NCBI GenBank assembly: GCA_001800605.1
Contig: MGVS01000070.1
Location: 2,910-66,909, forward strand
Direction: 5' to 3'
DNA from: Elusimicrobia bacterium RIFOXYD2_FULL_34_15
GTDB taxonomy: Bacteria; Elusimicrobiota; UBA8919
Length of the DNA: 64,000 nt
In this document: positions 1,590-58,676 of the stretch, piece after piece
How the letters are laid out: each line of letters starts with the position of its first letter
Position numbering within the stretch: the stretch's first letter is position 1
Program-made: the position numbers and the translations under genes
The notes under the pieces: generated by a model
Seen by the model: the letters and a program-made list of their open reading frames with translations, nothing else
Told to the model about the DNA's origin: nothing
The model's database searches: none

Positions 1590-1666
1590 CCTATTCTTTC
1601 TGCGTTTATCTGCGTAAAAATTCGCGTAAATCTGCTTATAGTTCTCTCAGCGTGGATCTGCTTCTA
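1590..1666. repeat. Member of the ATCTGCGT/ATCTGCTTC interspersed repeat family, located at the 3' end of uvrB.
   Basis: tctgcgtttatctgcgtaaa...cagcgtggatctgcttcta. Related copies occur at 5190-5290, 5693-5830 and 37405-37502. Confidence 0.6.
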
Positions 1667-3700
1667 TTTTTTCACAGACATTTCTTTCAATTCAAATATC
1701 TTATCCCTTAATATAGCGGCAACTTCGAAATTCAAATTATCGGCTGCATCATTCATTTCTTTTTCAAGTTCCCGTATTAATTCAGGAATATTTTTCTTTT
1801 GGGCATATTTTACCCAGTCCTCTCTTAATAATGACAGCGAATCCTTGGTTGCTTTGTATTGGAACTCTTGCAGTTCTTCAATTGCTTTTATTATTGATTT
1901 GGGTTTTATATTATGTTTTATATTATAAGCAACCTGTTTTTTTCTTCTGCGATTCATTTCCGCTAAGGCACGTTTCATTGAGCCGGTTACGGTTTCAGCA
2001 TATAAAATAACTTTTCCGTTGATGTTTCGTGCTGCACGGCCCGAAACTTGAATTAACGATGTTTCGCTTCTTAAAAATCCTTCTTTATCAGCGTCTAAAA
2101 CAGCAACCAGCGAAACTTCGGGCAAGTCAAGGCCTTCACGCAGAAGATTTACACCAACTAAAACGTCAAAATTTCCCTTTCTTAAATCACTTAAAATCTC
2201 TATTCGTTCCAATGCCTGAATTCCGGAATGCAAATATTTTACTTTTATTTTTTTTTCAAAAAGATATTCTGCAAGGTCTTCCGCCATTTTTTTTGTTAAT
2301 GTAGTAACCAGGACCCGTTCTTTTTTAATAACACATTTTTCAATTTCTGAAATTAAATCATCAATCTGGTTTTCAACCGGTTTTACCACAACTTCAGGAT
2401 CAATAAGTCCGGTAGGTCTTACAATCTGTTCGACTATAGCACCCCTGGATTTTTTTAGTTCGTATTCCGAAGGTGTAGCGGACATGTAAATGACATTATC
2501 AACTAGCGATTCAAATTCTTCAAGTTTCTGAGGGCGGTTATCCAGGGCTGACGGCAGACGAAACCCGAAATCAATAAGAGTTTCTTTTCTTGCTTTATCC
2601 CCTTTATACATTCCGTTAATTTGCGGGATTGTGACATGTGATTCGTCGATAACCGTAAGAAAATCTTTTGGAAAATAATCAATGAGACATTCGGGTCTTG
2701 AACCGGGTTTTCTGCCTGAAAGGTGTCTTGAATAATTTTCAATTCCATGGCAATAACCCAGTTCAAGCATCATTTCTATGTCGTAATTCGTTCGTTGTTC
2801 AATTCGTTGCGCTTCCAAAAGTTTCCCTTCTTTTTTAAAATATTGAATCCGTTCTTTTAGTTCCCTTCTTATTTCTTCAACTGCTTTTTCCAACTGTGGA
2901 CGTGGTGTAACGAAGTGCTTTGCGGGATAGATGAAATATCGTGAGATTGTGGGATAGTGCGATGGTGCGATTGAGTGGCCGGTAAGAGGATTTATTTCGG
3001 TTATTTTTTCGATTTCATCACCGAAAAATTCAACCCTTATTGCTGTTTCGGAGTTTGCAGGAAAAATATCTATTAAGTCGCCCCGTACCCTGAATTTACC
3101 GCGTATAAATTCGATATCATTTCTTTCATAGTGTATATTTATTAATTCATTCAATAAAAAATTACGGTTAACCGTTTTACCTTTTTCGAGAACTACGCAC
3201 ATTTCTTTAAAATCTTCAGGAGAGCCGAGATTGTAAATTGAAGATACAGAAGCGACAACAATAACATCGGTTCTGGATAATAGAGAAGTTGTTGTTTTAA
3301 TACGTAGTCGGTCTATGTGTTCGTTTATTGAAGCGTCTTTTTCTATATAGGTATCTGTTTGCGGTATATATGATTCCGGCTGGTAGTAATCATAATATGA
3401 AATAAAATATTCAACTGCGTTATCAGGAAAAAAAGCTTTAAATTCGGAATAAACTTGTGCGGCAAGCGTTTTATTGTGCGATATTACAAGAGTAGGTTTG
3501 TTAATTTTTTGTATTACGTTTGCAATTGTAAAAGTTTTACCGGAACCGGTAACACCGAGAAGAACCTGATGTTTTTGATTTATTTTAATTCCATTAAGTA
3601 ATTGTTTTATTGCTTCGGGTTGGTCACCTGCAGGTTTGAATTTAGATATGAGATTAAATTGTCCCCGTACGAAAATGTTGTTAATATTGTTTTTTGCCAT
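1664..3700 (-). CDS. uvrB: Excinuclease ABC subunit B
   Basis: 678-aa ORF with Walker A LGVTGSGKTFT, the helicase motifs and a C-terminal UvrB/UvrC interaction region. Full-length UvrB. Confidence 0.95.
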   Translation of the reverse strand: MAKNNINNIFVRGQFNLISKFKPAGDQPEAIKQLLNGIKINQKHQVLLGVTGSGKTFTIANVIQKINKPTLVISHNKTLAAQVYSEFKAFFPDNAVEYFISYYDYYQPESYIPQTDTYIEKDASINEHIDRLRIKTTTSLLSRTDVIVVASVSSIYNLGSPEDFKEMCVVLEKGKTVNRNFLLNELINIHYERNDIEFIRGKFRVRGDLIDIFPANSETAIRVEFFGDEIEKITEINPLTGHSIAPSHYPTISRYFIYPAKHFVTPRPQLEKAVEEIRRELKERIQYFKKEGKLLEAQRIEQRTNYDIEMMLELGYCHGIENYSRHLSGRKPGSRPECLIDYFPKDFLTVIDESHVTIPQINGMYKGDKARKETLIDFGFRLPSALDNRPQKLEEFESLVDNVIYMSATPSEYELKKSRGAIVEQIVRPTGLIDPEVVVKPVENQIDDLISEIEKCVIKKERVLVTTLTKKMAEDLAEYLFEKKIKVKYLHSGIQALERIEILSDLRKGNFDVLVGVNLLREGLDLPEVSLVAVLDADKEGFLRSETSLIQVSGRAARNINGKVILYAETVTGSMKRALAEMNRRRKKQVAYNIKHNIKPKSIIKAIEELQEFQYKATKDSLSLLREDWVKYAQKKNIPELIRELEKEMNDAADNLNFEVAAILRDKIFELKEMSVKK

Positions 3701-3748
3701 TAGTATATTTAATATTTATTATATGACTGCATTTTCTAACGGGGCTTA

Positions 3749-3794
3749 CCCCGTACGAGATAGGAAGCGTTTGTAAAAATGCTTCCGTGTATTG
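3749..3794 (-). promoter_or_regulatory. Conserved 46-nt element, copy 1. The motif is CCCCGTACGAGATAGGAAGCGTTTGTAAAAATGCTTCCGTGTATTG and it lies immediately upstream of uvrB. It contains the hairpin GGAAGC..GCTTCC.
   Basis: Near-identical copy (1 indel) at 36096-36140 upstream of hom. Both copies are in sense orientation relative to the downstream minus-strand gene. Confidence 0.4.
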
Positions 3795-3886
3795 TATATG
3801 AAATATTCATATATTTTTATATCTTACTTTTAATAGCACATATTTAGTATACAAACTAATCTCTAACGGGGCAGGTTCACAGGAAA

Positions 3887-5149
3887 TTATAATGACCATC
3901 TAGGAGACAATTCTTTCCACGATTCTCTTACAGGTTTTGCTGTTGATGTAGTTTTTATGTTTTGGGCACAGGTTTTATCATAATATATTGTAGGTGTTCC
4001 GCCTCCAAGTGCAGTACCCCGAACTATAACAACTCCGTAAATATTAGGATTTGCGCTGGCGGTACATGTGCCATATACATATATTAATCCTCTGAAGCAA
4101 GGCTTGGTTATTGAAAAATCTTTAATTTGATGGTATCCGCCGTCACCGTCATATTGATTCTGATCAGTATTGTCAGGTTCAATGCCACCGGTATTAGGGG
4201 TATCAACACAATATTCTTTCCAGGCATTTACATGAGGAGTAGCTAAATAATCATCTCCTTTATTACTTGATTCAATGGTCAAATTACCTTTAACTATTAA
4301 ATTACCGTAAACATTGCAAGATTTTAATGTACAGTTGGCTTCCGTATAGTAAGTAGTAAAGGTTGTAGAAAATGCTTCTTTATATGGACCAGAGGAGCCG
4401 CCACCGGCATATGCACCTGTTAAGTCCAAATTACCAACTAAGTAGGTAGGTGTTGCCGGATTTGCAGTAGTATATGCTTGTGCATCCGTTTTGTAATCTG
4501 AAGTTATTTCAGGTATTTCCGCAACCTCAAATTCGTCATGCCATTCACGAAATTCATCATCTAAAGCGGAAGGTCCGGATGTCGGTGCGCCAGGTGTTGG
4601 GTCATTATGATTATGTCCGGCGCTACCGCAGGATATCTGACCACGAGAATATTTTCTTGGGTAAAAATTATCAGCTGAACCGCTTAAACTTATACCTAAA
4701 GTAGAAGAAACAGGCCCCCAATTAATTACAAAATTTCCGGTTACGGATATTCCGGGAGCAATCAATGCTGATGATACACCCGGTGTTTTAGAATAAATCG
4801 CCTGAATTGTTCTGCATTCATCTGTAGCTTGATCTTTTCCTGAAGATAGTATAGTTATCTGATTATCAGAAGGACCGCTTGAGAATTTTATTCTGTAATA
4901 ACCGCCTTCAACATCGGAATATGTTGAATCAGTACTGCTTCCGGTATAACCAGGGATTGCAGTTCCTAAAACAGCTATATCCCAAATGCCTGATTCATTT
5001 AATTTAAAAATACCTCTGTCTATTCCCGCTTCAGCGAGATGAAAAGCCCTTGTAGATTTTGTTTGCTTGGTAATTGATTTTGCTTCAAAAGTTGACATAT
5101 AGACAAGTGCCGGTATGACAACCCCTATAATCATAGCAATGATTAACAT
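3887..5149 (-). CDS. Type IV pilus minor pilin / assembly protein, PilX-like. The start is most likely the internal ATG at 5149. The longer ORF to 5314 reads through an intergenic repeat.
   Basis: A hydrophobic N-terminal segment (MLIIAMIIGVVIPALV) is followed by STRAFHLAEAGIDRG, resembling the PilX_N motif (RAF.AAEAGLE). The ORF-track N-terminal extension IRSRYTHKRYRSGFTRITTQ is encoded by the ATCTGCGT repeat family. Confidence 0.5.
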   Translation of the reverse strand: MLIIAMIIGVVIPALVYMSTFEAKSITKQTKSTRAFHLAEAGIDRGIFKLNESGIWDIAVLGTAIPGYTGSSTDSTYSDVEGGYYRIKFSSGPSDNQITILSSGKDQATDECRTIQAIYSKTPGVSSALIAPGISVTGNFVINWGPVSSTLGISLSGSADNFYPRKYSRGQISCGSAGHNHNDPTPGAPTSGPSALDDEFREWHDEFEVAEIPEITSDYKTDAQAYTTANPATPTYLVGNLDLTGAYAGGGSSGPYKEAFSTTFTTYYTEANCTLKSCNVYGNLIVKGNLTIESSNKGDDYLATPHVNAWKEYCVDTPNTGGIEPDNTDQNQYDGDGGYHQIKDFSITKPCFRGLIYVYGTCTASANPNIYGVVIVRGTALGGGTPTIYYDKTCAQNIKTTSTAKPVRESWKELSPRWSL

Positions 5150-5291
5150 TATGACTACAACCTGACCTTTTGAAGAACTCGAAGCTGACTTACGCTGAAC
5201 AATACGCTGATTGACGCAGACAAAATCAGTGTTTATCTGCGTTGTAATCCGCGTGAATCCGCTTCTATATCTTTTATGCGTGTATCTGCTT

Positions 5292-5690
5292 CTAATCTTT
5301 TCTAGCTTTATCATAAATTCGTCTCCGGATTTCTAATTTCTTGCTTCCAAAATTTATTAGTAAACCTAATTTATAATTACTTGCTTTTAGATAATACCAA
5401 AATTGTTTTTCATGTTCTTTTGTTATAAACGGCTGGCATTTAATTTCTATTAGGATTTTTTCATTAATAATTTTATCCGGAATGTAAGTTCCAACTTTAT
5501 TTTCATGATAATAAATATCTATTCTTTTTTGTTCTTCTACTTTAAGTCCTTGTTTTAATAATTCTAAACCAAGAGCGTTATCAACGATTGATTCCTTAAA
5601 TGCACCGTGAAATTCTTTCCAAATTTCGAAACATGCTCCTCTTATTTTATAAGTTTCTTTTTCGTATAAAAAATCCCCCATTTTTTTCAT
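5292..5690 (-). CDS. GxxExxY family protein (PD-(D/E)xK-fold, TIGR04256-like selfish small gene)
   Basis: N-terminal FLYEKETYKIRGACFEIWKEFHGAF matches the GxxExxY signature, and the C-terminal LINFGSKKLEIRR matches too. Its stop codon TAG is supplied by the repeat motif ATCTGCTTCTA. Confidence 0.7.
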   Translation of the reverse strand: MKKMGDFLYEKETYKIRGACFEIWKEFHGAFKESIVDNALGLELLKQGLKVEEQKRIDIYYHENKVGTYIPDKIINEKILIEIKCQPFITKEHEKQFWYYLKASNYKLGLLINFGSKKLEIRRRIYDKARKD

Positions 5691-5692
5691 CA

Positions 5693-5830
5693 GCTTAGAT
5701 CAGCGTTGCTATCAGCGTGTATCTGCTTCCATGCCCTTTCCGCGTAAATCTGCGTTCCAATCTGCGTAGATCTGCTTCAACGCACTTTCCGCGTAAATCT
5801 GCGTTCCAATCTGCGTAGATCTGCTTCTAT
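5693..5830. repeat. Repeat block of the ATCTGCGT/ATCTGCTTC family. It includes a perfect tandem duplication of a 43-nt unit, CTTTCCGCGTAAATCTGCGTTCCAATCTGCGTAGATCTGCTTC, at 5736-5778 and 5785-5827 (period 49).
   Basis: Direct reading of the sequence. Identical copies are separated by AACGCA. Confidence 0.8.
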
Positions 5831-5837
5831 GAATTTA

Positions 5838-6365
5838 TCAGTTCATTATACGTACTTTGGCAGTTGAAAGTTGAAGTGCTTTTGTATTTTGATTATATGT
5901 TTTCTTTTCAAAAGTAATGGAAACATTTACTATGGAATCTTCCGATGTTTCCGGATAAGTAAATGAAATACATCTTAGAGATTTTGCCAACGATATAGTT
6001 GAATTTATTACTTCATAAAGTGTCTGATCCTGTTGATAATATACATATATCTGGTTATTTTTTGTAAATGATATCCTAGAATAAGGCGGTTGGTTAGCAT
6101 CATACCTGTCAACTACAATAGAAGATGCGTCAGCTTGTCTAAGATTCTTGTTAATCGCATTAATAGCAGTTCTTCCATCTCTTTGTATGTCAGTTTTTGC
6201 ACTGGATAATTGCCAGAACTGAATAAATTTTAAAAATAATGATGTCAGAGCCATTGCAATTATGCTTACTGATACAATGTTTATCATCAATTCTACAAGG
6301 GTAAGTCCCTTTGAGCGAGTAGATAAGTGGATATGTGGATAAGTGAATAAGTGTTTGCGTTTCAT
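5838..6365 (-). CDS. Prepilin-type N-terminal cleavage/methylation domain protein (type IV minor pilin, PilV/PilE-like)
   Basis: RSKG|LTLVELMINIVSVSIIAMALTSL is a class III signal with a G-(F/L)TL(V/I)E motif. Confidence 0.55.
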   Translation of the reverse strand: MKRKHLFTYPHIHLSTRSKGLTLVELMINIVSVSIIAMALTSLFLKFIQFWQLSSAKTDIQRDGRTAINAINKNLRQADASSIVVDRYDANQPPYSRISFTKNNQIYVYYQQDQTLYEVINSTISLAKSLRCISFTYPETSEDSIVNVSITFEKKTYNQNTKALQLSTAKVRIMN

Positions 6366-6739
6366 TTATTCCTCAAACTTTTAATTAAATTTTGTAACAT
6401 TCTGCTGATGAAAAACAAGTGTTTAGTAGTTAGGTTGTCAAGTTGATATTCAGTAATAAATTTTAGTTCCTTTGCAATAACGAGTTGTGTATGTAATTCT
6501 CCACAAGAACCAAGTGAAATATACAGGAATTGAATAATTTCAGGTTTATACTGTCGCATAAATCCTTCTGCTATATTCGATGATATTGACACTGTGGCTC
6601 TTCGTATTTGACTTGTTAAACCATAAACTTCTTCTTTTGGAAAACTTTTTGTAATCAGATATACTTCTTTCACTAACTCAATACTTTTCTGCCATACTAA
6701 TAAATCAGTATAACTTTTTACTTTATCAATACTAACCAC
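6362..6739 (-). CDS. Four-helix-bundle protein. This is the 23S rRNA intervening-sequence protein family (PF05635/TIGR02436), the same family as DGR Avd.
   Basis: KSYTDLLVWQKSIELVKEVYLITKSFPKEEVYGLTSQIRRATVSISSNIAEGF is the diagnostic family motif. The ATGA overlap with the downstream pilin gene suggests co-transcription. Confidence 0.8.
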   Translation of the reverse strand: MVSIDKVKSYTDLLVWQKSIELVKEVYLITKSFPKEEVYGLTSQIRRATVSISSNIAEGFMRQYKPEIIQFLYISLGSCGELHTQLVIAKELKFITEYQLDNLTTKHLFFISRMLQNLIKSLRNK

Positions 6740-6779
6740 TTAGCCACCCGTTTTCTCTTTCACTTAACCACTTTTTTAT

Positions 6780-9353
6780 TTATGGCCATGTGCCAGTAAA
6801 ATCTACAGTTACAGTTGAATTAGTGTCATCGACAGCTGTAGCAGTTACTCCTGTTTTAGTTTTTGTTGTTACAAAATCACCGGAAGTTTTTGTATACCAC
6901 GCCCGTAAGTTATAAGTATAACCTTTCCTTACTATTATTTCATATGTTCCGGAAGAGCCTGAAATAGAACCATAATATATATTTGCTCCGCTTCTAAATG
7001 TTGAATTGATTGTTTCGGGACTTTCTGCAGGGACCGTTCCGTTTGTCGCTATAATAAGGACACCCGTGGTTATATTGCCGCCTATCGCAGTATCACTGAC
7101 TGTCCCGATAATTTTTCCCCAGACCGATGTTATTTTAAAATTTTTGCCGGTTAAATCATCTCCTTGTGCAAGATTTATTGGAGTGGGCCAGTTGTCCTCT
7201 CTTATATAAGAGTCAGCAGAATCTAATACAGGATAAAGAACAACATCGGTTGCCGTTCTTATACCTTTTAAAGAGTATGTTCCGTCACTGCCGGAAACGG
7301 TGTCTTTTGAAAAGCCTGAGCTTGTACTTGTTGCTCTTACTGTGACAAAAGGCAATGCATCTCCTGAAGAATTTTTTGTTATTCCGGATATTTTTCCGGC
7401 CGTATATAGTTCCAGATTATCTACGGTTACGGATCTTCCTGCAGTTACTTCAATGAATTTTGTATCTTCTGTCCAATTTATATCGTCACAGTCCTGATTA
7501 GCAACTATTGTGTATGAACCTTCTGCTACTGTATAATTGTAATATCCGTTTGAATCTGTTGTTGCAGGCGAGTATCCGCTAACTGCAACTTGTATACCAG
7601 ATATACCTGTTGATGTTCCGCTGCGTATGACTCTTCCTGTGATAAATCCGCCGACTGACGGAGAAGATAATAAAACAGCGTTTATCTTATAATCTGAATG
7701 ATAAACTGGATATTTAGGTGAAGTAGAGGAATTAGGAATTGCTGTTCCAACATTGGAATTTACCGAGACATTTGCAATTTCTCTGTAATAACTACCCGAT
7801 GTAATATAAATAGACCAAGTTCCAGTAGCAACTGTAAGGGAAAAATATGCATTGGGTTTATTATTATTCTTATAGTATGCGGTAGTTGGTGAAGATAGTC
7901 CGTCGTTTGCGGATATTACAGCACCATATGCAGGTGTTCCGCTTACCGGTGGTGAAGAAGTTGAAGAATTATAAGGACAATAATTTTCAATACCATGTCT
8001 GTAATAAAAATCATAATCGTTAATATTAGAATCATATGCTCCACCGCCACGGATATCGGAAACGTATCCATAAGTTTGACCTGTAAAATGGTATCTGAAA
8101 AGTTCATGATCAGGTTCAATAGGACCATCATTACTTTTGAAACCTGTAGTTTCAGTTGCTTGTGAAGGAGGATCAGCGCCAAGTCCAGTATTTTTTCCCC
8201 ATGCTACTGAATCAATCTTGTTTGATGTTCCGGAATCATAAGAAAGAATAATTCCTCCCGGAACACTATTTTTTATGAAATCAGGATATGGACTTCCTTG
8301 ATCGTAAGTTGCGTCTGCAGTGACGCTTGTGTTATTAATATAAACAGTGCCTGTGTTTGCTATTAAGTAATAACTGAACGAAGGAACAGAAGTATTAGAA
8401 AAGCTAAGCGGAAATTCAGATAGATTATTGTCATCATAGTATAAATCAATTGATGCATCATCTATTGTCCATGCCCACGTTGTTGGATTAAATAACTGAA
8501 TGTATTCTTGTTCATGACTGTCATAATCCGTAGCTGTAACTATCAAAGAAATTAAAAGATGGTCATTAATCATCGCCCAACCTGTAACTGTTCCAGTCAA
8601 TTTTTGTGTTAATTGGATGTTTTGGTTGGCAGATACAGCAAAATTTGCAGTAGTATTGTTCCAGTAACCATCCTTTGATACAGTAAGTTGTATTGTTGCC
8701 GGAGTTGTGGTTTTAATCAGATAATAACCCGTAGAAGAAGTTTGTGAAGCCCAGTTTAGATTTTGAGCAACTTCAACTCTTGCGCTTGCGATACCTACTG
8801 CGGTTCCTGTTGTTGTTACAAGGCCATAAATTGTACCGCCTAAAGTTGTTCTGTAAGGATCATCTCTAAGGTTATATAGTACAAGCGATTTTGATTCGTT
8901 ATTTTCTGTCCAGGTTACTTCCACTTTTATTTTTTTTATACCTTCATCTGCCCCGGTCGGAGACATTGTTGATATTACTGTGTTCCCGGCATCGACTTCT
9001 TCCCGTGCACGCCAAACTGTAGTATATCTTACAAAAGTAGCATCACCGATTCTCAAAGTTTCCGGAGTATAACCTGTATAGGTTTCATCATGACCATGAT
9101 TTGCTAAATCGTCCAATGTTGTTACCAGTAATCTTGCATATGAATAGTTTTTTAAATATTCAATTTTTTCTTGTGCTAGATTATTTGCAATAGTTCTGGT
9201 TTTTGATGTAATAAGTCCTTTTCCGATTGTGCCGAAAGTTGTAATAATACCCATTATTACTATGCTTATTACAAGTATAGTAACCATTATTTCAACTTGA
9301 GAAAAACCAGAAGGTTTTTTTAATTTATAGAGTGAAAATATTTTTTCGTTCAT
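6780..9353 (-). CDS. Large (857 aa) type IV pilin-like protein with a prepilin N-terminus. Putative pilus tip or adhesin minor pilin.
   Basis: KKPSG|FSQVEIMVTILVISIVIMGII is a class III signal peptide. The body is long and S/T/G/N-rich, beta-rich and extracellular-looking. Confidence 0.5.
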   Translation of the reverse strand: MNEKIFSLYKLKKPSGFSQVEIMVTILVISIVIMGIITTFGTIGKGLITSKTRTIANNLAQEKIEYLKNYSYARLLVTTLDDLANHGHDETYTGYTPETLRIGDATFVRYTTVWRAREEVDAGNTVISTMSPTGADEGIKKIKVEVTWTENNESKSLVLYNLRDDPYRTTLGGTIYGLVTTTGTAVGIASARVEVAQNLNWASQTSSTGYYLIKTTTPATIQLTVSKDGYWNNTTANFAVSANQNIQLTQKLTGTVTGWAMINDHLLISLIVTATDYDSHEQEYIQLFNPTTWAWTIDDASIDLYYDDNNLSEFPLSFSNTSVPSFSYYLIANTGTVYINNTSVTADATYDQGSPYPDFIKNSVPGGIILSYDSGTSNKIDSVAWGKNTGLGADPPSQATETTGFKSNDGPIEPDHELFRYHFTGQTYGYVSDIRGGGAYDSNINDYDFYYRHGIENYCPYNSSTSSPPVSGTPAYGAVISANDGLSSPTTAYYKNNNKPNAYFSLTVATGTWSIYITSGSYYREIANVSVNSNVGTAIPNSSTSPKYPVYHSDYKINAVLLSSPSVGGFITGRVIRSGTSTGISGIQVAVSGYSPATTDSNGYYNYTVAEGSYTIVANQDCDDINWTEDTKFIEVTAGRSVTVDNLELYTAGKISGITKNSSGDALPFVTVRATSTSSGFSKDTVSGSDGTYSLKGIRTATDVVLYPVLDSADSYIREDNWPTPINLAQGDDLTGKNFKITSVWGKIIGTVSDTAIGGNITTGVLIIATNGTVPAESPETINSTFRSGANIYYGSISGSSGTYEIIVRKGYTYNLRAWYTKTSGDFVTTKTKTGVTATAVDDTNSTVTVDFTGTWP

Positions 9354-9392
9354 AAAAAGGATATAATGAGATTGAAAAACCCAACAATCTCT

Positions 9393-9477
9393 GATTACAC
9401 CGATTAAACAGCAAGATTACACAGATTAGATACCGACAGTAATATCCGTGTAATCGTCTTTTAAAATCTGTGTAATC
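9393..9477 (-). promoter_or_regulatory. Cluster of GATTACAC(A/C)G motifs (GATTACAC x4) upstream of the large pilin gene
   Basis: The same motif pairs occur at 573-608, 22716-22838 and 44571-44622. Each is in sense orientation upstream of a gene. Confidence 0.35.
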
Positions 9478-9552
9478 AAGAGCGGTGAATGCTTTTCAAC
9501 GCTCTAATATTTATAACACAAAACACACAAAAAGTCAAGGAGTTTTTAAATT

Positions 9553-9716
9553 CAGTATACAGTACACAGGATACAGTCTTAAGAAAAATCATAAGTTAAA
9601 ATTAAATCTAAATAGTAAGAGCTATTTGCTATTTATGCGTGCTGTGTACTGTCTTTTTAGTGCTATATTCTGTGTACTGTATTCTGTATTCTGTATACTG
9701 AGTACTGTCTTTTTAA
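9553..9716. repeat. ACAGGATACAG/CTGTATTCTGTAT repeat block with inverted-orientation arms. MITE-like element, about 165 nt.
   Basis: Left arm cagtatacagtacacaggatacagtc, right arm ctgtattctgtattctgtatactgagtactgtc. Same family as 15412-15470 and 34680-34725. Confidence 0.5.
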
Positions 9717-11632
9717 TATCTCCATGGATACCATTTTCTTTCTTCATCTTCAGGATTTTCAGTCTTTTTCTCACCGCCACCCGGTTTTATCCGGATGTTA
9801 AACCAGAATTCATAATAATTTTCTTTTTGGTCAAGAGGAATTCTTTGAATATAAGAAAAAGATGCTTCCCAACAGTGTAAATTTCTATAAACTTTTATAG
9901 CATTTTCATAATATCTGAAATTTGAAAAATTATAATTTAAAAAATCATAATTTAAAGATGTCTGCATTTTATATGCAATTTCCCAGTTTTTTGTTGGTCT
10001 AATTCCGGTTTCTGCAAAGGTGGTAAGTTTGCCCGGAGCAGCAAGGTTATAAGATACTCCGTTTTTTAAATAAGCATTTCCCTTAAAATTTATATTTGTA
10101 TCTAATTGTACGGAATTTGGTTTTCTGAATAATACGTTATAATCATTTCTATAGTAGACATTAAAAAATCTGTATGGGCTATAATCAATTTCAGTAGTTA
10201 TGCCTTCTAAACGTTCTCTAAAAGATATTATTTTTTCATTAAGCGCTCTGCGTATATTAAGTGCTGTAAAACCTCTAACAGTTAGATTATTCAAATATAC
10301 GGATTGAATTGTTCTTATCTTGTTTGTTAATACTCCATGATAATCATCATGCCGTAAATCAGGTTGTTGTTCAAATTCATGGATAAATTGGTGGTCAAAA
10401 ATTCTGGTTGAGCGTATATCCAAATCTAAATTTGTCCTGTATCGCCATGAATAAACATTTTTTTCTCTCGCAGTAATTTCGTCTCTATCTTTCCAAAATT
10501 GCTTATATCCTACTGCGGAGGTTAGTGTAATCCTTCTTGAAATAGAAAGCGGATTGGAAAATTTGATATCACCGGTTGCACCGGTTGTATAGGCACCGGT
10601 GGAAATAATTGACTTATCCCATGACCTTGCTCCGCTTAGATTTAATTCGTAATAAAGCGGTAATTTTTTTATTTTTATTTGCCTGGTCGCAAAAGATACT
10701 GCAGGAACAGATAGGGAATTCAAGATATAAATATTTTTGTTATTATCAAAGACATCACTTCTTGCAAATGTGATACGGGTTGTTGTTTGCTCTTTGTTTT
10801 TTGTAAGTGAAATCGAAGAATCTAAACTATTATAAATTTTTATCCAGTCATTTGTATAATATGCGTTAAATGACTCGTCGCTTGCATAATTTGAATTAAT
10901 TTGAGCAATCCAGTTTTGGCCTAAATTCTGCCAGTGATAAACCCTTGAATTCCACCTGATTTGTCCGGGTTTAGATGCGAAATTTTTTCCTTTAATTCTA
11001 TATCCATAAATTGTCCCGTTAACTTTGCCTTCATCTTTATAGAAAATTTCCCCTCCAGTTCCGATACCATTTATGGTAAAGTAATCAAGATAAAGTTTCC
11101 CGTAGATATATTCTGAAAGCGGATACCCAAGCATACCTTTTGCAAAAAATCCGTCGCGATTATTATAACCCGGCTTAATTTCAATTTTGTATTTTCTTTG
11201 TTTTAAATTTTTGTAATAGTATGGAAGTATTGCTGAAGGAATATCTCCTAGAAATAATACGACGTTTGTTGCGGTTATTCTTTTATTGACTATAAGGCTG
11301 GCACTTCTTGCATAATATTTGTAGTGCGGATTTTCGAGGTCACAAGTAGTGAAATAAATTCTTTTCAACAAAAGCTCTTGTGTTTTTTGATATGCTTCCA
11401 CAGAATCGCAGTTTAAATATGTATCCGTAGTTTTTAATTTTACATTGCCTGAAAAAATAGTTTTCCCTTGTAATTTATCAAACTGAACTTTATCGGAAGT
11501 TATATTGACTTCCTGCTCGCAATATAAATAAGTAACGGGTAACGAGTAACGGGTAACGAAAAGAACAGTAATGAGTAATGAGTAACGGGTAACGGGTAAT
11601 AAGATTATAAATAGTTTTTTTATATGTTTCAT
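9713..11632 (-). CDS. lptD: LPS-assembly protein LptD (OstA family)
   Basis: An OstA-like N-domain (NITSDKVQFDKLQGKTIFSGNVKL) is followed by a long beta-barrel body. The N-terminal signal region LPVTRYSLLITVLFVTRYSLPVTYL is encoded by the GTAACGGGTAACGAG repeat. Confidence 0.7.
   Translation of the reverse strand: MKHIKKLFIILLPVTRYSLLITVLFVTRYSLPVTYLYCEQEVNITSDKVQFDKLQGKTIFSGNVKLKTTDTYLNCDSVEAYQKTQELLLKRIYFTTCDLENPHYKYYARSASLIVNKRITATNVVLFLGDIPSAILPYYYKNLKQRKYKIEIKPGYNNRDGFFAKGMLGYPLSEYIYGKLYLDYFTINGIGTGGEIFYKDEGKVNGTIYGYRIKGKNFASKPGQIRWNSRVYHWQNLGQNWIAQINSNYASDESFNAYYTNDWIKIYNSLDSSISLTKNKEQTTTRITFARSDVFDNNKNIYILNSLSVPAVSFATRQIKIKKLPLYYELNLSGARSWDKSIISTGAYTTGATGDIKFSNPLSISRRITLTSAVGYKQFWKDRDEITAREKNVYSWRYRTNLDLDIRSTRIFDHQFIHEFEQQPDLRHDDYHGVLTNKIRTIQSVYLNNLTVRGFTALNIRRALNEKIISFRERLEGITTEIDYSPYRFFNVYYRNDYNVLFRKPNSVQLDTNINFKGNAYLKNGVSYNLAAPGKLTTFAETGIRPTKNWEIAYKMQTSLNYDFLNYNFSNFRYYENAIKVYRNLHCWEASFSYIQRIPLDQKENYYEFWFNIRIKPGGGEKKTENPEDEERKWYPWRY
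11523..11605. repeat. GTAACGGGTAACGAGTAACG-family tandem repeats, here inside the 5' end of lptD
   Basis: aacgggtaacgagtaacgggtaacgaaaagaacagtaatgagtaatgagtaacgggtaacgggtaat. Family members occur at 16745-16785, 17205-17260, 21050-21100, 24060-24095, 25605-25690 and 48570-48760. Confidence 0.8.
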
Positions 11633-14623: not shown

Positions 14624-15403
14624 TTAAATGTTACGAGTGATATATTTAAGAAAATTTATAATAGATTTCTTCTTTTTTATTAAACTAATTATTGCACTTC
14701 CTATGATAAAACCTTCGCAATATTTCTTTAATTTTTCTATATGTTCAGGTTTAGAAATACCGAAGCCAACAAACAATGGTTTTGAAGTTTTGTTTTTAAG
14801 TTTTTTTAAAAATGGAATTAATTCATCGGATAATTCTGCTCGCGCTCCTGTGATACCGGTTACTGCTGTGACATAAATAAAACCTGTGGATATTTTAGAT
14901 ATTTTTTCTGCTCTTTTTAAACCGCTTGTTAATGCTACAAGCGGTATATAAGCTATATTATATTTTTTTGCTAATTTTCTTATCAACGAACTTTCTTCAA
15001 AAGGTAAGTCAGGAATTATAATACCGTCTACTCCTGTTTTATGTGATTTGCTAAAAAAAGCATTCAAACCATAGTTATAAATCGGATTAAGATATCCCAT
15101 CAATATAACAGGGATTTTTGTTTTTTTTCTTATATTTTTTACAATAGAAAAACATTTTTCTAAATTTACATTATTTTCAAGTGCTTTTTGAGAAGAATAT
15201 TGTATTGTCGGACCATCAGCTATCGGATCTGAAAATGGTATCCCCAATTCAATTATATCAGAATATTTTTCTATTTCAATTATCAATTTCTCTGTAGTAT
15301 TTACATTTGGATAACCTGCAGTAAGAAATATAGAGATTGCTTTCTTTTTTTCTTTTTTTAATTTATATAATGTTTTTTCTAAATTATTCATAATGCAGCT
15401 CAC
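14624..15403 (-). CDS. trpA: Tryptophan synthase alpha chain
   Basis: FLTAGYP, ELGIPFSDPIADGPTIQ. Confidence 0.9.
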   Translation of the reverse strand: MSCIMNNLEKTLYKLKKEKKKAISIFLTAGYPNVNTTEKLIIEIEKYSDIIELGIPFSDPIADGPTIQYSSQKALENNVNLEKCFSIVKNIRKKTKIPVILMGYLNPIYNYGLNAFFSKSHKTGVDGIIIPDLPFEESSLIRKLAKKYNIAYIPLVALTSGLKRAEKISKISTGFIYVTAVTGITGARAELSDELIPFLKKLKNKTSKPLFVGFGISKPEHIEKLKKYCEGFIIGSAIISLIKKKKSIINFLKYITRNI

Positions 15404-15411
15404 AGGATACA

Positions 15412-15470
15412 GGATACAGGATACAGGATACAGGATACAGGATACAGGATACAGAATACAGAATACAGAA
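15412..15470. repeat. Microsatellite (CAGGATA)7(CAGAATA)3, the reverse complement of (CTGTATC)n. It lies directly upstream of the trpA start, between trpB and trpA.
   Basis: acaggatacaggatacaggatac...agaatacagaatacagaatt read directly. Confidence 0.85.
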
Positions 15471-15494
15471 TTATAAACTGCTAACGATCTTTCT

Positions 15495-15530
15495 TTTTAC
15501 CTCTCTACCTCTCTACCCTTCTACCTTGAT
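15495..15530. repeat. CTCTACC-family repeat, abutting and supplying the TAG stop of trpB
   Basis: cctctctacctctctacccttctacc. Related copies at 33985-34005, 34755-34790 and 42262-42306. Confidence 0.6.
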
Positions 15531-16687: not shown

Positions 16688-16784
16688 ATCGATTTATTAT
16701 ACAAAAAATAGCATAAAAAACAATAAAAATAGCAGTTAACATATTACCCATTACTCGTTACTCATTACCCGTTACTTATTTTCT

Positions 16785-17207: not shown

Positions 17208-17250
17208 TTTACCCGTTACTCGTTACTCAGCCTGTCCCGATTTATCGGGA

Positions 17251-19475
<2,225 letters not shown>

Positions 19476-24059: not shown

Positions 24060-24097
24060 TTTACACGTTACCCATTACTCGTTACTCGTTACTTTCT

Positions 24098-25048: not shown

Positions 25049-25711
25049 TTATTTTTTTGGAAGCGTCATTAAAGTTGTGTTAATAACACCGTTAGCTTCC
25101 TCTTTTAACGGTGAGTGCAAAGCTTTATCTATAGTTTTTTCAACAAGTTGTGAGGCAAACGCTCTCCCGATATCCTTAAATTCAAATTCTTTTTTTGAAA
25201 CTTTTCGTTCATCTTCCCATAAAAGCTGTTCTGTTTTTGCATCAAATAATTTAAAATTTCCCTCGACAGTTCTTGCATAATAAAAACCAAGAGTAGTATA
25301 TTTAAACTCTATTACATCTCCGAAAAAAAGCCCGTCAACGTTTAATTTTTCACCTAATTCTTTCGGGGTGGTTGTCGGAAATTGCCCGGCTTCGGTAATA
25401 CCCATTTTTCTTAATTTCTCATCTATTTCTTCAAGCGGAATAGTGTTATAACCAATATTGGTTAGCCGTTTATTAAAAAGATACCGCAATAAAACCGGTG
25501 CATTCAAATCAATGGATTGGTTGGAAAACGGCAAAACAGCAACTCGCGCAGGCGGTATATAATTTTCTATTATATACTTTGCTTTCGGCGCACAACCAAT
25601 AAATAAAAAACAAATAACGAGTAATGAGTAACCAGTAAAAGACAAGTAATGAGTAACGGGTAACGAGTAACGGGGAACGGGTAAAAAGTAAAGTAATTTT
25701 AAATTTTTCAT
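25049..25711 (-). CDS. Lipoprotein, possibly the DUF799-type partner of CsgG-like proteins
   Basis: Lipobox FIGC and adjacency to the CsgG-like gene. N-terminal 30 aa (LPVPRYSLPVTHYLSFTGYSLLVI) are encoded by the GTAACGGG repeat. Confidence 0.35.
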   Translation of the reverse strand: MKNLKLLYFLPVPRYSLPVTHYLSFTGYSLLVICFLFIGCAPKAKYIIENYIPPARVAVLPFSNQSIDLNAPVLLRYLFNKRLTNIGYNTIPLEEIDEKLRKMGITEAGQFPTTTPKELGEKLNVDGLFFGDVIEFKYTTLGFYYARTVEGNFKLFDAKTEQLLWEDERKVSKKEFEFKDIGRAFASQLVEKTIDKALHSPLKEEANGVINTTLMTLPKK

Positions 25712-25771
25712 TGGTTTTATATTAGATTGAATAATTTTTAACTTTTAACTTTTAATTTTTAATTGCTTTTA

Positions 25772-26248
25772 TTATGCGCCTCTTGCGATTGCTATAATAC
25801 CTGTTCTTGCAACTTCTTTTATACCGAACGGTTTAAGCATATTTAATATTGCCTGAATCTTATCTTCGTCGCCGGTCATTTCAATAATAACTGTGTTTAC
25901 TGAAACATCGATAATTTTTGCTCTGAATATATCCACAATCTGTAGTATTTCGTTTCTTGTATTTTTATCTGCTTTAACTTTAATAAGCACTAAATCTCTT
26001 TCAATATGCTCTATATTTAAAAAATCATTTAGTTTTATAACATCAATCAGCTTATTTAATTGTTTTTCTACTTGTTCAAGTATTTTTTCGTCACCGTTTA
26101 CTACAATTGTCATTCTTGAAATAGTCGGGTCATCTGTTTCACCGACTGCTAATGAATCGATATTGTAGCCGCGTGCTGCAAAAAGCGTTGCAATTCTTGC
26201 TAAAACACCTGATTTGTTTTCGACTAAAACTGAAATTGTGTGTTTCAT
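25772..26248 (-). CDS. ilvN: Acetolactate synthase small (regulatory) subunit
   Basis: ACT domain ISVLVENKSGVLARIATLFAARGYNIDSLAV. Confidence 0.85.
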   Translation of the reverse strand: MKHTISVLVENKSGVLARIATLFAARGYNIDSLAVGETDDPTISRMTIVVNGDEKILEQVEKQLNKLIDVIKLNDFLNIEHIERDLVLIKVKADKNTRNEILQIVDIFRAKIIDVSVNTVIIEMTGDEDKIQAILNMLKPFGIKEVARTGIIAIARGA

Positions 26249-26386
26249 AAAACCCCCAAAAAGGCAATTTAAAATTAAAAATTAAAAGTTATAATAAATT
26301 CAAGTTAAAATTTAAAGTTAAAAACTAAAATCAAGTCTTTGTTTTTGTCTCAATTTTTATTTATACTTTTGATTTTAACTTGCTTT

Positions 26387-33533: not shown

Positions 33534-34703
33534 TTAGAGTTCGATTGCTGATATAATTTTTTTGATATTTGGTTCTAATACTTTTGGTTGTTTTGCCGAT
33601 TTTATTGCTCTATCAGGATCTTTCAGTCCATGTCCCGTTACCGTGCAAACAATCACACAGCCTGATTTTTGGATATTTATTTTTGAATTGAATTTTATAA
33701 GTCCGGCGACGGATGCTGCTGATGCCGGTTCGACAAAGACACCTTCTAAAGAAGCTAATAGTCTATATGCTTTTATTATTTCTGAATCAGTGACCATATC
33801 TATAACACCCTTTGATTCGTCTCTTGCTTCTTCTGCTTTTTTCCAACTTGCGGGATTTCCGATTTTTATAGCGGTTGCTATTGTCTTTGGGTTTTTTATT
33901 GGTTTACCTTTTACAATAGGTGCAGAACCGGATGCCTGAAAACCCATCATGTGTGGCAGGTTACAGGTCTCGCCACGGCGAGCAGGAAAAGGTAGAAAGG
34001 TAGAAAGGTTAGGACTTAATTTTAACCTTTTACTTTTAACTTTTAACTTTGATTTATCATTTGCATATTCTTTATAGCCTTTCCAGTAAGCAGTGATATT
34101 TCCGGCGTTTCCGACCGGAATAAAATGATAATCCGGAGCCCTGCCCAAAAAGTCGATTATTTCAAAAGCTGCGGTTTTTTGGCCTTCAATTCTATATGGA
34201 TTTACTGAATTAACAAGCGTAATCGGATAATTTTTTGTTATTTCAATAACGATTTTTAGTGCCTCATCAAAATTCCCTTTTAATGCTATGACCTTTGCTC
34301 CATGCATCATTGCCTGTGAAAGTTTGCCTAACGCGATAGAACCATCGGGAATTACAACTGAACATTTAAGTCCTGCTCTTGCGGAATACGCAGCAGCTGA
34401 CGCAGCGGTATTGCCGGTTGAAGCACAAATAACTGCTTTGCTTCCTTCTTCAACTGCTTTAGAAATTGCCATTGTCATACCGCGGTCTTTGAAAGAACCG
34501 GTTGGATTCATCCCTTCAAATTTTAAATAAATCTCAGAATTTACCTTTAAGAATTTTTCGAGGTTTCTTGCCCGTAACAATGGCGTATTACCCTCATAAA
34601 GCGTAACTATAGGTGTCTTGTCAGACACGGGTAGATACTTCCTATATCTATCAATAATCCCTTTATAAATCATATTTAAACCAGGATACAGAATACAGTA
34701 CAC
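33534..34703 (-). CDS. thrC: Threonine synthase, carrying an in-frame insertion of about 35 aa derived from intergenic repeat families
   Basis: PLP site [18 protein letters not shown], then ...[18 protein letters not shown]-[insert][14 protein letters not shown]. Confidence 0.85.
33955..34064. repeat. Composite repeat inserted in-frame in thrC. Units are tcgccacggcgag, (ggtagaaag)2 and (ttttaac)n.
   Basis: ggtctcgccacggcgagcaggaaaaggtagaaaggtagaaaggttaggacttaattttaaccttttacttttaacttttaactttga. It translates to [35 protein letters not shown]. Confidence 0.8.
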
Positions 34704-34790
34704 AGGATACAGTATTATAAGTTCTCGTCTATTAACTTCAAATTATAAACTTTTTCCTCTCTACCTTTTTCCCTTTTTACCGTATCTTTA
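34680..34790. repeat. thrC-hom intergenic repeats: an ACAGGATACAG family member plus a CTCTACC family member
   Basis: ccaggatacagaatacagtacacaggatacag ... cctctctacctttttccctttttacc. Confidence 0.7.
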
Positions 34791-37404: not shown

Positions 37405-37502
37405 CCTCGCGGATTCACGCTGATACCTACGCTGATCTACGCTGAACTTTCCGCGTTGTAATCCGCGTTTATCTGCTTCTATGCTTTCAGCGTGGATCTG
37501 CT
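37405..37502. repeat. ATCTGCGT/ATCTGCTTC family repeat block. It supplies the C-terminus and TGA stop of the 87-aa ORF.
   Basis: cgctgatctacgctgaactttccgcgttgtaatccgcgtttatctgcttctatgctttcagcgtggatctgcttc. Confidence 0.7.
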
Positions 37503-37750
37503 TCGAGTCTTTCAATGTACTCAGGGATCCGTTTAGACAATTCAAAAATCGCTAACCCAATTACTATGCATGCAAGTCCATAAACAACTTCAAAACCCGA
37601 ATATTTTGACCATTTAGCAAGCGGAACGAATTCTGACTCCGGAAAGCCGATGAGAGCATCATAAAGTCCTTTAAGTGCTACAATGCCCCCCCAGACAACA
37701 AAAATCCATCCGCTGCTTTTAAAAACTGCACGATATTTTATTTTTTGCAT
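37487..37750 (-). CDS. Small membrane protein (2 TM), unknown function
   Basis: 87 aa. Hydrophobic segments IFVVWGGIVAL and VVYGLACIVIGLAIF. Confidence 0.3.
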   Translation of the reverse strand: MQKIKYRAVFKSSGWIFVVWGGIVALKGLYDALIGFPESEFVPLAKWSKYSGFEVVYGLACIVIGLAIFELSKRIPEYIERLEADPR

Positions 37751-42216: not shown

Positions 42217-42328
42217 TTATTAGATTTTACTAAATTTTATTTATTTAGGCAAGAACGAATATAAAAGGTAAAGAGGTAAAAAGGTAGAAAGGTAGAGAGG
42301 TAAAAATGTAACAGTAAAATTAAACTTC

Positions 42329-47751: not shown

Positions 47752-48479
47752 TTATTAAAATCTTCCAATTGTTTAAAAAGATCATCCCCAAACTGGGATT
47801 CCTTTTTGGCAGGTTTTTCAGATTTTTTTTCAGTTGATTTTTTTATGCTTATATCTTGCTCAGATTTTTGCTCCGTAATTTCTTTTTTTCGTGTTTCGGT
47901 TTTATATTGAGACAGAGAAATTTTCTTAACTATTATTTTAGGCGGTAAATTTCCTTCGTTCAAAGAAACAACCCCGCCGGCATTTCCGTTATAATATATT
48001 CTAAAAGGTGCATCTTTAATTGTAGGCTGGTAAGAAGTTCCTTTAATTTCTAATTCTGTTTCCCATCTAGGATGAATAATAAGTTTGCCGTTTGCATCTG
48101 CGATGCCTTTTACTATAGGAATTGAAAATCTTACTTTATATATACCATTTACATCCGTCACGGCATTTTCAAATCCTATTCCGTCAACCATAATTTGAAT
48201 ATCAGGCATGGGAATACCGTCTTCTGTGTCTATTTCACCTTTAAGGTAACCCTCTATCCAGTCTGTATAATTTGCACTTGAAAAAAATAAAAATCTTTTA
48301 TAACCGGCTAGTTTTTTTACGACTGATAAATCAGATAAACGATTGGGATTCAGGTTTTCGTTTATAGTCGTGATTTTTCCTGTCGATTTACTACCGATTA
48401 ACGGAAAACCTGAACAACCTATAAAAAGTAATGTAAAAATTAAAAATGAAAAATTAAAAATTAATGTATACTTTTTCAT
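47748..48479 (-). CDS. Lipoprotein, unknown function, with a K/E-rich C-terminus
   Basis: Signal MKKYTLIFNFSFLIFTLLFIGC. The h-region is encoded by the TTAAAA-family repeat at 48435-48467. Confidence 0.4.
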   Translation of the reverse strand: MKKYTLIFNFSFLIFTLLFIGCSGFPLIGSKSTGKITTINENLNPNRLSDLSVVKKLAGYKRFLFFSSANYTDWIEGYLKGEIDTEDGIPMPDIQIMVDGIGFENAVTDVNGIYKVRFSIPIVKGIADANGKLIIHPRWETELEIKGTSYQPTIKDAPFRIYYNGNAGGVVSLNEGNLPPKIIVKKISLSQYKTETRKKEITEQKSEQDISIKKSTEKKSEKPAKKESQFGDDLFKQLEDFNK

Positions 48480-48559: not shown

Positions 48560-48760
48560 GAATTACGCATTAACCAGCCTGTCCCGATTCATCGGAATTA
48601 CCCGTTACTTAGCCTGTCCTGCCGCCCATGGCGAGCCTCGCCCCTTTGGGGCGGGAGCATTTTAAACTGTCGAAGGATTACTCATTACCCCGCCACTAGG
48701 TCTTTGGCGGGCAAGCATTACCCGTTACCCGTTACTCGTTACTATCTTTTTATTCTTTTT
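48560..48760. repeat. Composite intergenic repeat block. It contains a CAGCCTGTCCCGATTCATCGG hairpin unit, GC-rich hairpins (gccgcccatggcgag, ctcgcccctttggggcggg, ccgccactaggtctttggcgg) and GTAACGGG units.
   Basis: The same units recur at 17205-17260 and 21050-21100. Confidence 0.7.
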
Positions 48761-56203: not shown

Positions 56204-56204
56204 T

Positions 56205-56306
56205 TTTAATAATACATACAGCGCAGGCACAGATTGCTTTGCCTTTACCGATGCCCCCCACCCGTTCTCTTGTTGTTGCCTTGATGCTTATATTTTTTGT
56301 TTTTAA
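56205..56306. repeat. Partial duplicate of the ispF 3' end, copy 1, about 100 nt. It reads in frame as IKATTRERVGGIGKGKAICACAVCIIKNG*.
   Basis: ttaataatacatacagcgcaggcacagattgctttgcctttaccgatgccccccacccgttctcttgttgttgccttgatgcttatattttttgtttttaaagcc, compared with the native ispF tail at 59150-59255. Confidence 0.8.
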
Positions 56307-56328
56307 AGCCAATATTTAATATATTTAA

Positions 56329-58605: not shown

Positions 58606-58607
58606 AA

Positions 58608-58672: not shown

Positions 58673-58676
58673 TTTT

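Follow-up and report, generated by a model that had tools for sequence, protein, structure and literature searches.

Two small genes of probable selfish cassettes in the junctions of a pilin-like operon of an Elusimicrobia bacterium

The pilin-like operon, its two small genes and their repeat arms

The DNA studied here (the window) is a stretch of 64 kb from a low-GC groundwater Elusimicrobia bacterium (RIFOXYD2_FULL_34_15, the name under which the identical GxxExxY protein is on record; contig MGVS01000070.1), and the locus of interest was found at 100% identity in several metagenomes. This locus lies on the minus strand, where the genes follow each other in the order LptD-like gene, pil857, IVP, pil175, GxxExxY, pil475 and uvrB (Table 1). 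The three pil genes form a pilin-like host operon, and the present analysis deals with the two small genes at its intercistronic junctions: IVP, encoding a four-helix-bundle protein of the 23S_rRNA_IVP family, is at pil857/pil175 (junction J1), and GxxExxY, encoding a PD-(D/E)XK protein, is at pil175/pil475 (junction J2). A previous reading of the sequence by itself (the sequence-only reading) had described both as placed in line and co-directionally between pilin-like genes, and this arrangement was confirmed. Each small gene is accompanied by arms of short repeats, and gene plus arms are referred to here as a cassette.

The putative pilin label of the host genes rests mainly on N-terminal class-III signal motifs, defined as G at −1, a hydrophobic residue at +1 and E at +5 followed by a hydrophobic helix. 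Such signals were identified in pil857 (KPSG/FSQVE; SG/FSQVE around the cleavage position, which the slash marks) and in pil175 (SKG/LTLVE; KG/LTLVE), while pil475 has KGQ and a hydrophobic helix without the E at +5. The latter protein gave no family match, and its PilX-like hydrophobic N-terminus was conserved in 33 homologues. Matches to the curated pilin profiles PilV, GspJ, HpsC and Verru_Chthon cassette protein C were weak and all below cut-off, and no pilus assembly genes were found adjacent to the operon, whose neighbours are the LptD-like gene and uvrB. Orthologues of pil857 are present in the syntenic operons of relatives. IVP starts 40 nt after the end of pil857, no terminator-like sites were found between the operon genes on the coding strand, and both cassettes are presumably co-transcribed with the operon. 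No second member of either small-gene family was found in the window, and Rfam and tRNA scans of it gave no matches, hence no rRNA or other Rfam family.

The families that the sequence-only reading had assigned to the two small genes were supported by profile scores far above the cut-offs. IVP matched PF05635 (23S_rRNA_IVP; E 1.5e-37, 128.5 bits, cut-off 33.8) and TIGR02436 (four helix bundle protein; 126 bits, cut-off 24), and comparison with solved structures (phmmer, PDB) gave 2GSC (E 2.6e-20) and 2RLD (E 5.9e-5), two entries of five chains each. GxxExxY matched PF13366 (PDDEXK_3; E 3e-30, 105 bits, cut-off 22) and TIGR04256 (E 5e-31, 107 bits, cut-off 35). In the alignment of its homologues P71, E82 and K84 were invariant and D72 nearly so, and the window protein has all four, which we take to be the PD...ExK residues. 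Its AlphaFold2 model (pLDDT 90.8) showed the ααβββαβ order of elements, and the best PDB matches were all PD-(D/E)XK nucleases (Cas4, lambda-exonuclease-like, Hjc), but weak, with no close solved relative found by Foldseek (best E 1.3e-3). Both families had been described as known from the intervening sequences (IVS) of 23S rRNA; this held for IVP, and for GxxExxY it was not confirmed.

Both small genes run into the start of the next pilin gene. The IVP stop overlaps the pil175 start as ATGA (6365-6362), a coupling that the sequence-only reading had correctly recognised; the final IVP codons carry the GAGG ribosome-binding site of pil175, and the ATG inside ATGA is the sole in-frame start (ATG, GTG or TTG) before the KG/LTLVE cleavage motif. 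GxxExxY overlaps the pil475 start by 23 nt, which had not been noted. Both the ATG of pil475 and its ribosome-binding site (GGAG) fall within the 3' end of GxxExxY, whose stop TAG forms the opening triplet of a TAGAAGCAGAT module. The conserved body of pil475 begins only at KGQVVVIML. This entanglement with start codons, the repeat arms and the recurrent occupation of both junctions in related species had all been missed.

The repeats of the IVP 5' arm contain TAA and TAG, the arm overlaps the GTG start of IVP, and the same arm family recurs in an orthologous cassette of a related genome (L077, see below). The 3' arm, a reverse complement of the 5' one, encodes leader residues 5-16 of pil175. 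In the minimum-free-energy fold these arms pair weakly (z = −1.67). Upstream of GxxExxY, each 49-nt module starts with (T)AGAAGCAGAT and is made of ACGCNGAT repeats; most population assemblies have 3 modules and two variants (L003 and L010) have 2. Several short contigs end within this module array (window 5691-5836). The inverted 3' arm pairs with the last 5' module, enclosing the whole GxxExxY ORF (open reading frame), and the long-range stem of the RNA fold was well supported (z = −4.19; 0/20 shuffles folded as well).

Repeats of the GxxExxY type also occur apart from the gene. The motif TAGAAGCNGAT had 13 occurrences in the window against 4.1±1.9 expected; five copies were exact, and these all belong to the minus strand, where they lie at two ORF-less sites and the cassette flanks. 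GxxExxY is therefore enclosed by inverted copies of a repeat, and the same repeat is dispersed gene-free elsewhere in these 64 kb of the genome. An ORF within inverted flanks with tandem repeats upstream was found for IVP as well, the pairing of the flanks being weak in the window cassette and strong in orthologues and family-wide. One of the ORF-less sites, located between an 87-aa ORF and the gene of an aminotransferase, forms a hairpin, and such hairpins would most simply be decayed or non-autonomous copies. The 87-aa ORF itself, located between ilvC and the aminotransferase gene, has two predicted hydrophobic stretches and no family match.

Table 1. Features of the locus and of the remaining window, with repeat insertions in UvrB of related genomes (strand as noted; unit or content in the last column)
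Feature	Position	Strand	Description
IVP (four-helix-bundle gene)	6362..6739	−	125 aa; PF05635, TIGR02436
IVP cassette, 5' arm	6731..6773	−	octamer-type repeats AAGTGGTTAAGTG ... GGTGGCTAAGTGGTTAGT; G-rich, C-poor
IVP cassette, 3' arm	6318..6353	−	TATCCACT x4.5; Tandem Repeats Finder
GxxExxY (PD-(D/E)XK gene)	5292..5690	−	132 aa; PF13366, TIGR04256
GxxExxY cassette, 5' arm	5691..5836	−	three tandem 49-nt modules; Tandem Repeats Finder
Direct modules 3' of GxxExxY stop	5231..5294	−	two, TAGAAGCAGAT... and TAGAAGCGGAT...; translated in pil475 N-terminus
GxxExxY cassette, inverted 3' arm	5178..5220	−	TCTGCGTCAATCAGCGTATTGTTCAGCGTAAGTCAGCTTCGAG; within pil475 leader-coding region
pil857	6780..9353	−	857 aa; class-III signal motif, then CarboxypepD_reg domains; first of the three host-operon genes
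pil175	5838..6365	−	175-aa pseudopilin; start ATG within ATGA
pil475	3887..5314	−	475 aa, PilX-like; ~50 N-terminal residues cassette-encoded
ORF-less GxxExxY-type repeat	1599..1674	−	directly after uvrB; uvrB stop TAG belongs to TAGAAGCAGAT
ORF-less GxxExxY-type repeat	37409..37514	−	direct then inverted modules (hairpin)
87-aa ORF	37514-37750
ilvN	25772-26248		acetolactate synthase small subunit
Arrays bracketing ilvN	25719-25770, 26260-26311		52 nt, inverted, AATTAAA-type
Other 7-8 nt arrays	9553-9708, 11531-11599, 15402-15526, 16744-16780, 17209-17228, 24061-24093, 25615-25764, 26266-26330, 33988-34050, 34682-34712, 42263-42311, 48434-48464, 48718-48742, 49265-49299, 61461-61568
Restriction-modification pair	56329-57474, 57446-58402		NgoFVII-like endonuclease; N6/N4 methyltransferase
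112-nt direct repeat	56196-56307, 58604-58715, 59143-59254		around the restriction-modification pair
UvrB in-frame insert, window	2941-2971
UvrB in-frame inserts, L017	11423-11486, 12111-12182
UvrB in-frame inserts, L041	12022-12050, 12652-12685

The two junctions in relatives and the two families elsewhere

A search with the PilX-like protein identified the syntenic operon in about 10 related Elusimicrobia. The sister genome (L075/L015; UvrB 93% identical, pil475 61% identical) is without both small genes, with no ORF at J1 and an ORF-less TTACCCG-type repeat in the leader at J2, and in the more distant L018 both junctions are empty. L014 is empty at J2 and has ORF-less ACGC-type arrays at J1. 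At L041 an IVP occupies J1 and a different IVP occupies J2; L017 has a third IVP type at J1 and an IVP with an in-frame stop at J2; L077 has an orthologue of the window IVP (81% identical, 5'-truncated) at J1 and an intact copy of the L017 type at J2; and at L074, where J1 falls at the contig end, J2 holds a GxxExxY pseudogene with its 5' third deleted and a TGG>TGA change. The presence or absence of the small genes in homologous pilin operons had been proposed as a check, and its outcome was that the junctions are empty, differently occupied or decayed in relatives. Cassette turnover at these junctions is fast, the occupants being absent, non-orthologous or decaying. Junctions recorded as empty in sister species are not bare: the L075 element (6027-6090) is of about 47 nt with kin at window 17216-17262 and 48563-48609, and the L014 arrays lie at 9370-9480.

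The IVP proteins at the junctions shared 26-45% pairwise identity and did not group by junction, so that the occupants are not one old vertically inherited insertion. A single ancestral, vertically transmitted insertion per junction was discarded for this reason together with the empty sister. With regard to the arms, those of L041 were GGAGATTN x4 upstream and CCAATCTCC x2 downstream at J1, and GGTGATAY x3 upstream and CGTATCACC x4 downstream at J2; those of L017 and L077 at J2 were GGATTAAG and CTTAATCC. Each ORF-bearing insert with readable flanks thus has its own repeat unit in a shared geometry, except the L017 IVP at J1, which shows a weak inverted repeat only and no clear tandem arrays. 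The 3' end was kept in all three decayed copies (L074 J2, L077 J1 and L017 J2), and in L074 and L017 it is readable as the ribosome-binding site and ATG of the next pilin gene; the L074 remnant retains the 3' two-thirds of GxxExxY with AGGAG and the pil475 ATG. The cassettes are dispensable, and they are entangled with the start of the gene that follows. Across the Elusimicrobia loci, array density had a median of 1.04 per kb where an IVP is present vs 0.135 where it is not (p = 5e-4), and it ranged from 0.4 to 1.1 per kb in this clade vs 0.05 in L018.

UvrB orthologues of the clade carry lineage-specific in-frame repeat insertions at three or four surface loops. The inserted unit differs per species, and the same insert is found in two copies in each of L017 and L041.

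A scan of metagenome contigs yielded 80 IVP loci, of which 78 genes were usable; the search was built on three IVP sequences, and the sample is accordingly biased to IVPs 45-57% identical to that of the window. Arrays with a unit of 6-11 nt were sought up to 140 nt upstream and up to 200 nt downstream, with 211 other ORFs on the same contigs as controls. They were present upstream of 54 of the 78 IVP genes (53/211 controls), downstream of 50 (64/211) and on both sides of 41 (22/211), and the downstream unit was the reverse complement of the upstream one in 29/78 vs 3/211 (Fisher p = 9e-16). In addition, the flank alignments of 49/78 genes were above the 95% level of mismatched-pair controls. 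The upstream units are G-rich and C-poor (33% vs 11%), and 30 of 54 contain TAG, vs 12.1±2.9 after shuffling; in a heptamer array of such kind, each of the three frames contains a stop codon. Contigs with IVP genes had 0.69 arrays per kb, one fifth of which share the unit of the local IVP arm. Among cultured bacteria, Nostoc edaphicum has an IVP between nrdB and nrdA with GGGAGTA x8 and TACTCCC x5 as its flanks, and IVP loci of Calothrix and Riemerella have similar arms.

A pilin-type signal motif in the ORF neighbouring IVP was found in 0/78 of the sampled genes, and pilin association as a property of the IVP family was rejected on this count. The description of these genes as selfish-type in the sequence-only reading agrees with their occurrence at many unrelated loci, none of the sampled ones beside a pilin-like gene. 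A link to the large surface protein, next to which it had drawn attention to the placement, was not supported.

Relatives of the window GxxExxY at 65-79% identity number in the hundreds, and many come from candidate phyla radiation (CPR) bacteria; the neighbouring pil475, in comparison, reaches only 61% identity in the sister species. Loci fetched at DNA level lie in line between PGK and DHH, ABC ATPase and permease, PaaX and HhH-GPD, or TP_methylase and tRNA synthetase genes. The cassette termini (G)TAGAAGCNGAT ... ATCNGCTTCTA(C) are common to CPR bacteria and Elusimicrobia, as illustrated by a Sungbacteria contig (GTAGAAGCGGAT/ATCCGCTTCTA), a Falkowbacteria contig (GTAGAAGCTGAT/ATCAGCTTCTAC) and the window (TAGAAGCAGAT). 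Moreover, 64 of 110 GxxExxY homologues have a C-terminal end ...SA, mostly [PQ]RxSA, and such tails would correspond to translation of the ORF into ATCNGCGT repeats. A phage origin was rejected because two scans detected no GxxExxY relatives on viral contigs. The plasmid collection gave two GxxExxY matches only, both distant.

One Sungbacteria contig (JACPMF010000007.1, L169) contains an IVP, a GxxExxY and a RecG gene in a single 6-kb stretch (1638-6363). The RecG product has a PDDEXK_3 match between its helicase domains, which would be an in-frame insertion of a GxxExxY-type domain in a host protein.

Interpretation of the two cassettes and rival explanations

All these data make it likely that the two small genes are the ORFs of compact selfish cassettes of the IVS type, residing outside rRNA and having no working relation to the pilins or to a diversity-generating retroelement (DGR). 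Such a cassette is built of a G-rich short-tandem-repeat arm, a small ORF and a C-rich reverse-complement arm, and two of them sit co-directionally in both intercistronic junctions of the three-gene pilin-like operon. Their persistence could have two causes. On the one hand, there is probably room for extra sequence at the junctions and in the cleavable leader peptides of the pilins, and the recurrence of cassettes at these junctions may reflect that prepilin leaders are cleaved and accept added residues. On the other hand, the next pilin gene now takes its ribosome-binding site, its start codon and the sequence coding for its leader from the cassette 3' end. Since this gene starts there, a clean loss of the cassette would silence it, and the survival of the 3' ends would be due to their supplying these elements. 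By analogy with Coxiella, the arms might pair in RNA and be cut by RNase III, and the targets of the GxxExxY nuclease might be its own arms or empty sites. The cassettes may spread between relatives by recombination, and the nuclease may help this spread.

Several observations weigh against this interpretation. About 1 Mb of Elusimicrobia sequence around the operon contains 7 IVP genes and 1 GxxExxY gene, and 5 of the 7 as well as the sole GxxExxY are at J1 or J2, which may exceed what tolerance would explain. In more than 10 population assemblies both window ORFs are found intact and without a difference, and a role beneficial to the host is therefore possible. The IVP arms of the window are short and their pairing alone is not significant (z = −1.67; z = 1.6). 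Among the sampled genes, arm mismatches were 47 G-U-compatible vs 51 A-C; this lack of G-U bias means that an RNA stem is not preferred over plain DNA inverted repeats, and RNA-specific selection on the arms was dropped for this reason. [quoted passage not shown] No mobility event, target-site duplication or enzymatic activity was demonstrated for the cassettes. Finally, arrays also bracket the housekeeping gene ilvN and many other intergenic sites of the window. The pairing of the ilvN flanks (81% complementary, z = 11.5) is the strongest of any window gene and is unexplained by the cassette model. Because of the arrays at ilvN and other cassette-free sites, the link between arrays and cassette genes is strong, not exclusive, and some arrays may arise independently.

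A domestication of the cassettes as regulators of the pilin operon, in which the arms would sequester the pilin starts and either ORF translation or changes in repeat number would set the output, was considered improbable. It would account for the location of the pil175 and pil475 starts inside or next to arms, with dependence on cassette sequence, and for the occupation of the same two junctions in at least five lineages. However, these junctions are occupied by non-orthologous genes, among them several pseudogenes, the genes are missing from the sister species and from two more, and the same cassettes occur elsewhere in unrelated operons. In a variant of this explanation, slipped-strand phase variation of the 7-8 nt units in leader-coding DNA would set the amount of minor pilin. 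Such units would shift the frame on expansion in the leader, and the copies of the 49-nt module do vary between strains (3 or 2), but the leader-coding arrays were identical in all population assemblies and polymorphism was confined to the non-coding 5' arm. Phase variation was discarded on account of this invariance.

Far less credible is that IVP acts as the Avd-type accessory protein of a present or degraded DGR diversifying the C-terminus of pil857. IVP and Avd are homologous four-helix bundles, IVP gave weak matches to PF22296 and NF033474, and its gene comes directly after that of a large extracellular protein. Nevertheless, these Avd models were far below cut-off (NF033474, 27.4 bits vs 80; PF22296, 27.1 vs 40), whereas the IVP models were far above theirs. 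The sequence-only reading had judged a complete DGR unsupported, and this proved right, since Pfam analysis of all called genes of the 64-kb window revealed no reverse transcriptase (RVT) and neither repeat finding nor blastn (word size 7, best E 0.017) revealed a second copy of any part of pil857, or a template-repeat/variable-repeat pair, beyond chance. When pil857, pil175 and pil475 were compared with the window by blastn, the cassette arms were the only real repeats. Orthologous operons have an IVP at either junction or none, and 0/78 relatives had a pilin-type motif in the neighbouring ORF, reverse transcriptase neighbours not being screened there. A DGR was rejected on the absence of a reverse transcriptase and of the repeat pair in the window. 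The outcome that the sequence-only reading had named as refuting a functional DGR link, namely neither of these parts in the genome and small genes at many unrelated loci, was largely observed, the reverse transcriptase search covering the 64 kb of the window.

Very unlikely as well, although somewhat less so than a DGR, is that nuclease and four-helix protein are defence or addiction genes guarding a pilus locus used as a phage receptor. The nuclease matches of the GxxExxY model, weak as they are, small mobile genes in variable sites being typical of defence islands, and the presence of a restriction-modification pair elsewhere in the window would fit this idea. Yet neither protein matched any PADLOC model, the two genes are neither adjacent nor co-inherited (J2 holds IVP and not GxxExxY in other species), pseudogenes are common, and the scans found no relatives on viral contigs. 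Apart from that restriction-modification pair, Pfam identified housekeeping genes in the window; the pair is surrounded by copies of a 112-nt direct repeat, which suggests an inserted module.

Comparison with known elements and significance

The selfish-cassette interpretation finds its nearest counterpart in the IVS of 23S rRNA from Coxiella burnetii and Leptospira. In Coxiella the S23p (IVP) ORF follows two or three tandem GACAGAT heptamers and lies within an inverted-repeat stem cut by RNase III, the ORF is decaying, and the sporadic distribution of IVS suggests horizontal spread (PMC4990558). Shared with the window cassettes are the protein family (PF05635), the ORF in the loop of a stem of inverted flanks, upstream tandem heptamers whose copy number varies by strain, the proneness of the ORF to decay and the sporadic distribution, which is also that of rRNA insertions in CPR bacteria. 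In contrast, the cassettes described here are in intercistronic junctions of a protein-coding operon and not in an rRNA helix, the next gene takes its leader from their translated 3' arm, the gene downstream would be damaged if RNase III excised them, and one of them carries a PD-(D/E)XK nuclease and not a four-helix protein.

GxxExxY with its TAGAAGCNGAT / ACGCNGAT modules also resembles the REPtron, formed by repetitive extragenic palindromes (REP) and RAYT/TnpA(REP), in that a single gene stands between inverted copies of a short repeat which is found dispersed, gene-free, at the 3' ends of other genes (here 1599-1674 and 37409-37514). The terminal GTAG of the repeat recalls the GTAG-tagged REPs. 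However, GxxExxY is a minimal PD-(D/E)XK nuclease and not an HUH Y1 transposase, and its arms are arrays of tandem units instead of a single palindrome.

Free-standing homing endonuclease genes, such as seg and mob of phage T4, are located between conserved genes, and Rickettsia palindromic elements are inserted in frame in genes. With the former the cassettes share a small nuclease gene between conserved neighbours, present or absent among relatives, but IVP cassettes have no nuclease and the arms are tandem arrays. The latter are paralleled by the in-frame repeat insertions in UvrB loops of the same clade.

Arrays of 7-8 nt units stud the window, mostly in intergenic positions, and belong to the families GTAACGR, ACAGGAT, AATTAAA and AAAGGTAG. 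Distant copies are often inverted, and some pairs cross instead of nesting. A heptamer array, CGTTACT x9.7 (window 11531-11599), codes for the N-terminus of the LptD-like ORF (LLPVTRYSLLITVLFVTRYSLPVTYLY), so that either its called start or its signal peptide is repeat-derived.

Similar arrays have been reported in Xanthomonas (GGGAATC) and Nostoc (PMC4692102), in Beggiatoaceae, where TAACTGA gives a stop codon in all three frames (PMC4679880), and as hepta/octanucleotide sites in Geobacter (PMC2700814), in every case with no associated gene and no accepted function. These dispersed arrays, including the short tandemly repeated repetitive (STRR) sequences of cyanobacteria, resemble those described here in having 7-8 nt units in 2-10 copies, in being mostly intergenic with some in permissive coding regions, in forming often convergent inverted pairs and in giving three-frame stops in one orientation. 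In the present case, by contrast, such arrays form the arms of IVP and GxxExxY genes, a relation backed by statistics and by cultured examples. No literature linking heptamer arrays to either gene was found in a limited searchable library.

The IVS protein family has been termed functionally uncharacterised since the 1990s, and heptamer arrays have repeatedly been described without explanation; the locus and the survey of 78 genes tie the two together in a testable way. The locus is, in addition, a clear case of a selfish insert whose loss has become difficult now that the following gene starts within it. For genome annotation, genes following such cassettes have N-termini encoded by repeats, and a solitary 'Avd-like' gene is no proof of a DGR. 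A wider proposal, which we put forward tentatively and regard as possible although not the likelier outcome, is that IVP and GxxExxY are the cores of widespread mobile cassettes whose arms are the unexplained heptamer and octamer arrays, that ORF-less inverted pairs are decayed or non-autonomous copies, that each small protein recognises or cleaves the arms of its cassette in the way RAYT does with REP, and that the IVS of rRNA is one special landing site. If this were true, the arrays of cyanobacteria (STRR), Xanthomonas (GGGAATC), Beggiatoaceae (TAACTGA), Geobacter and Elusimicrobia would be cassette arms, and the pentameric four-helix ring and the minimal PD-(D/E)XK nuclease would be the proteins that recognise or cut them.

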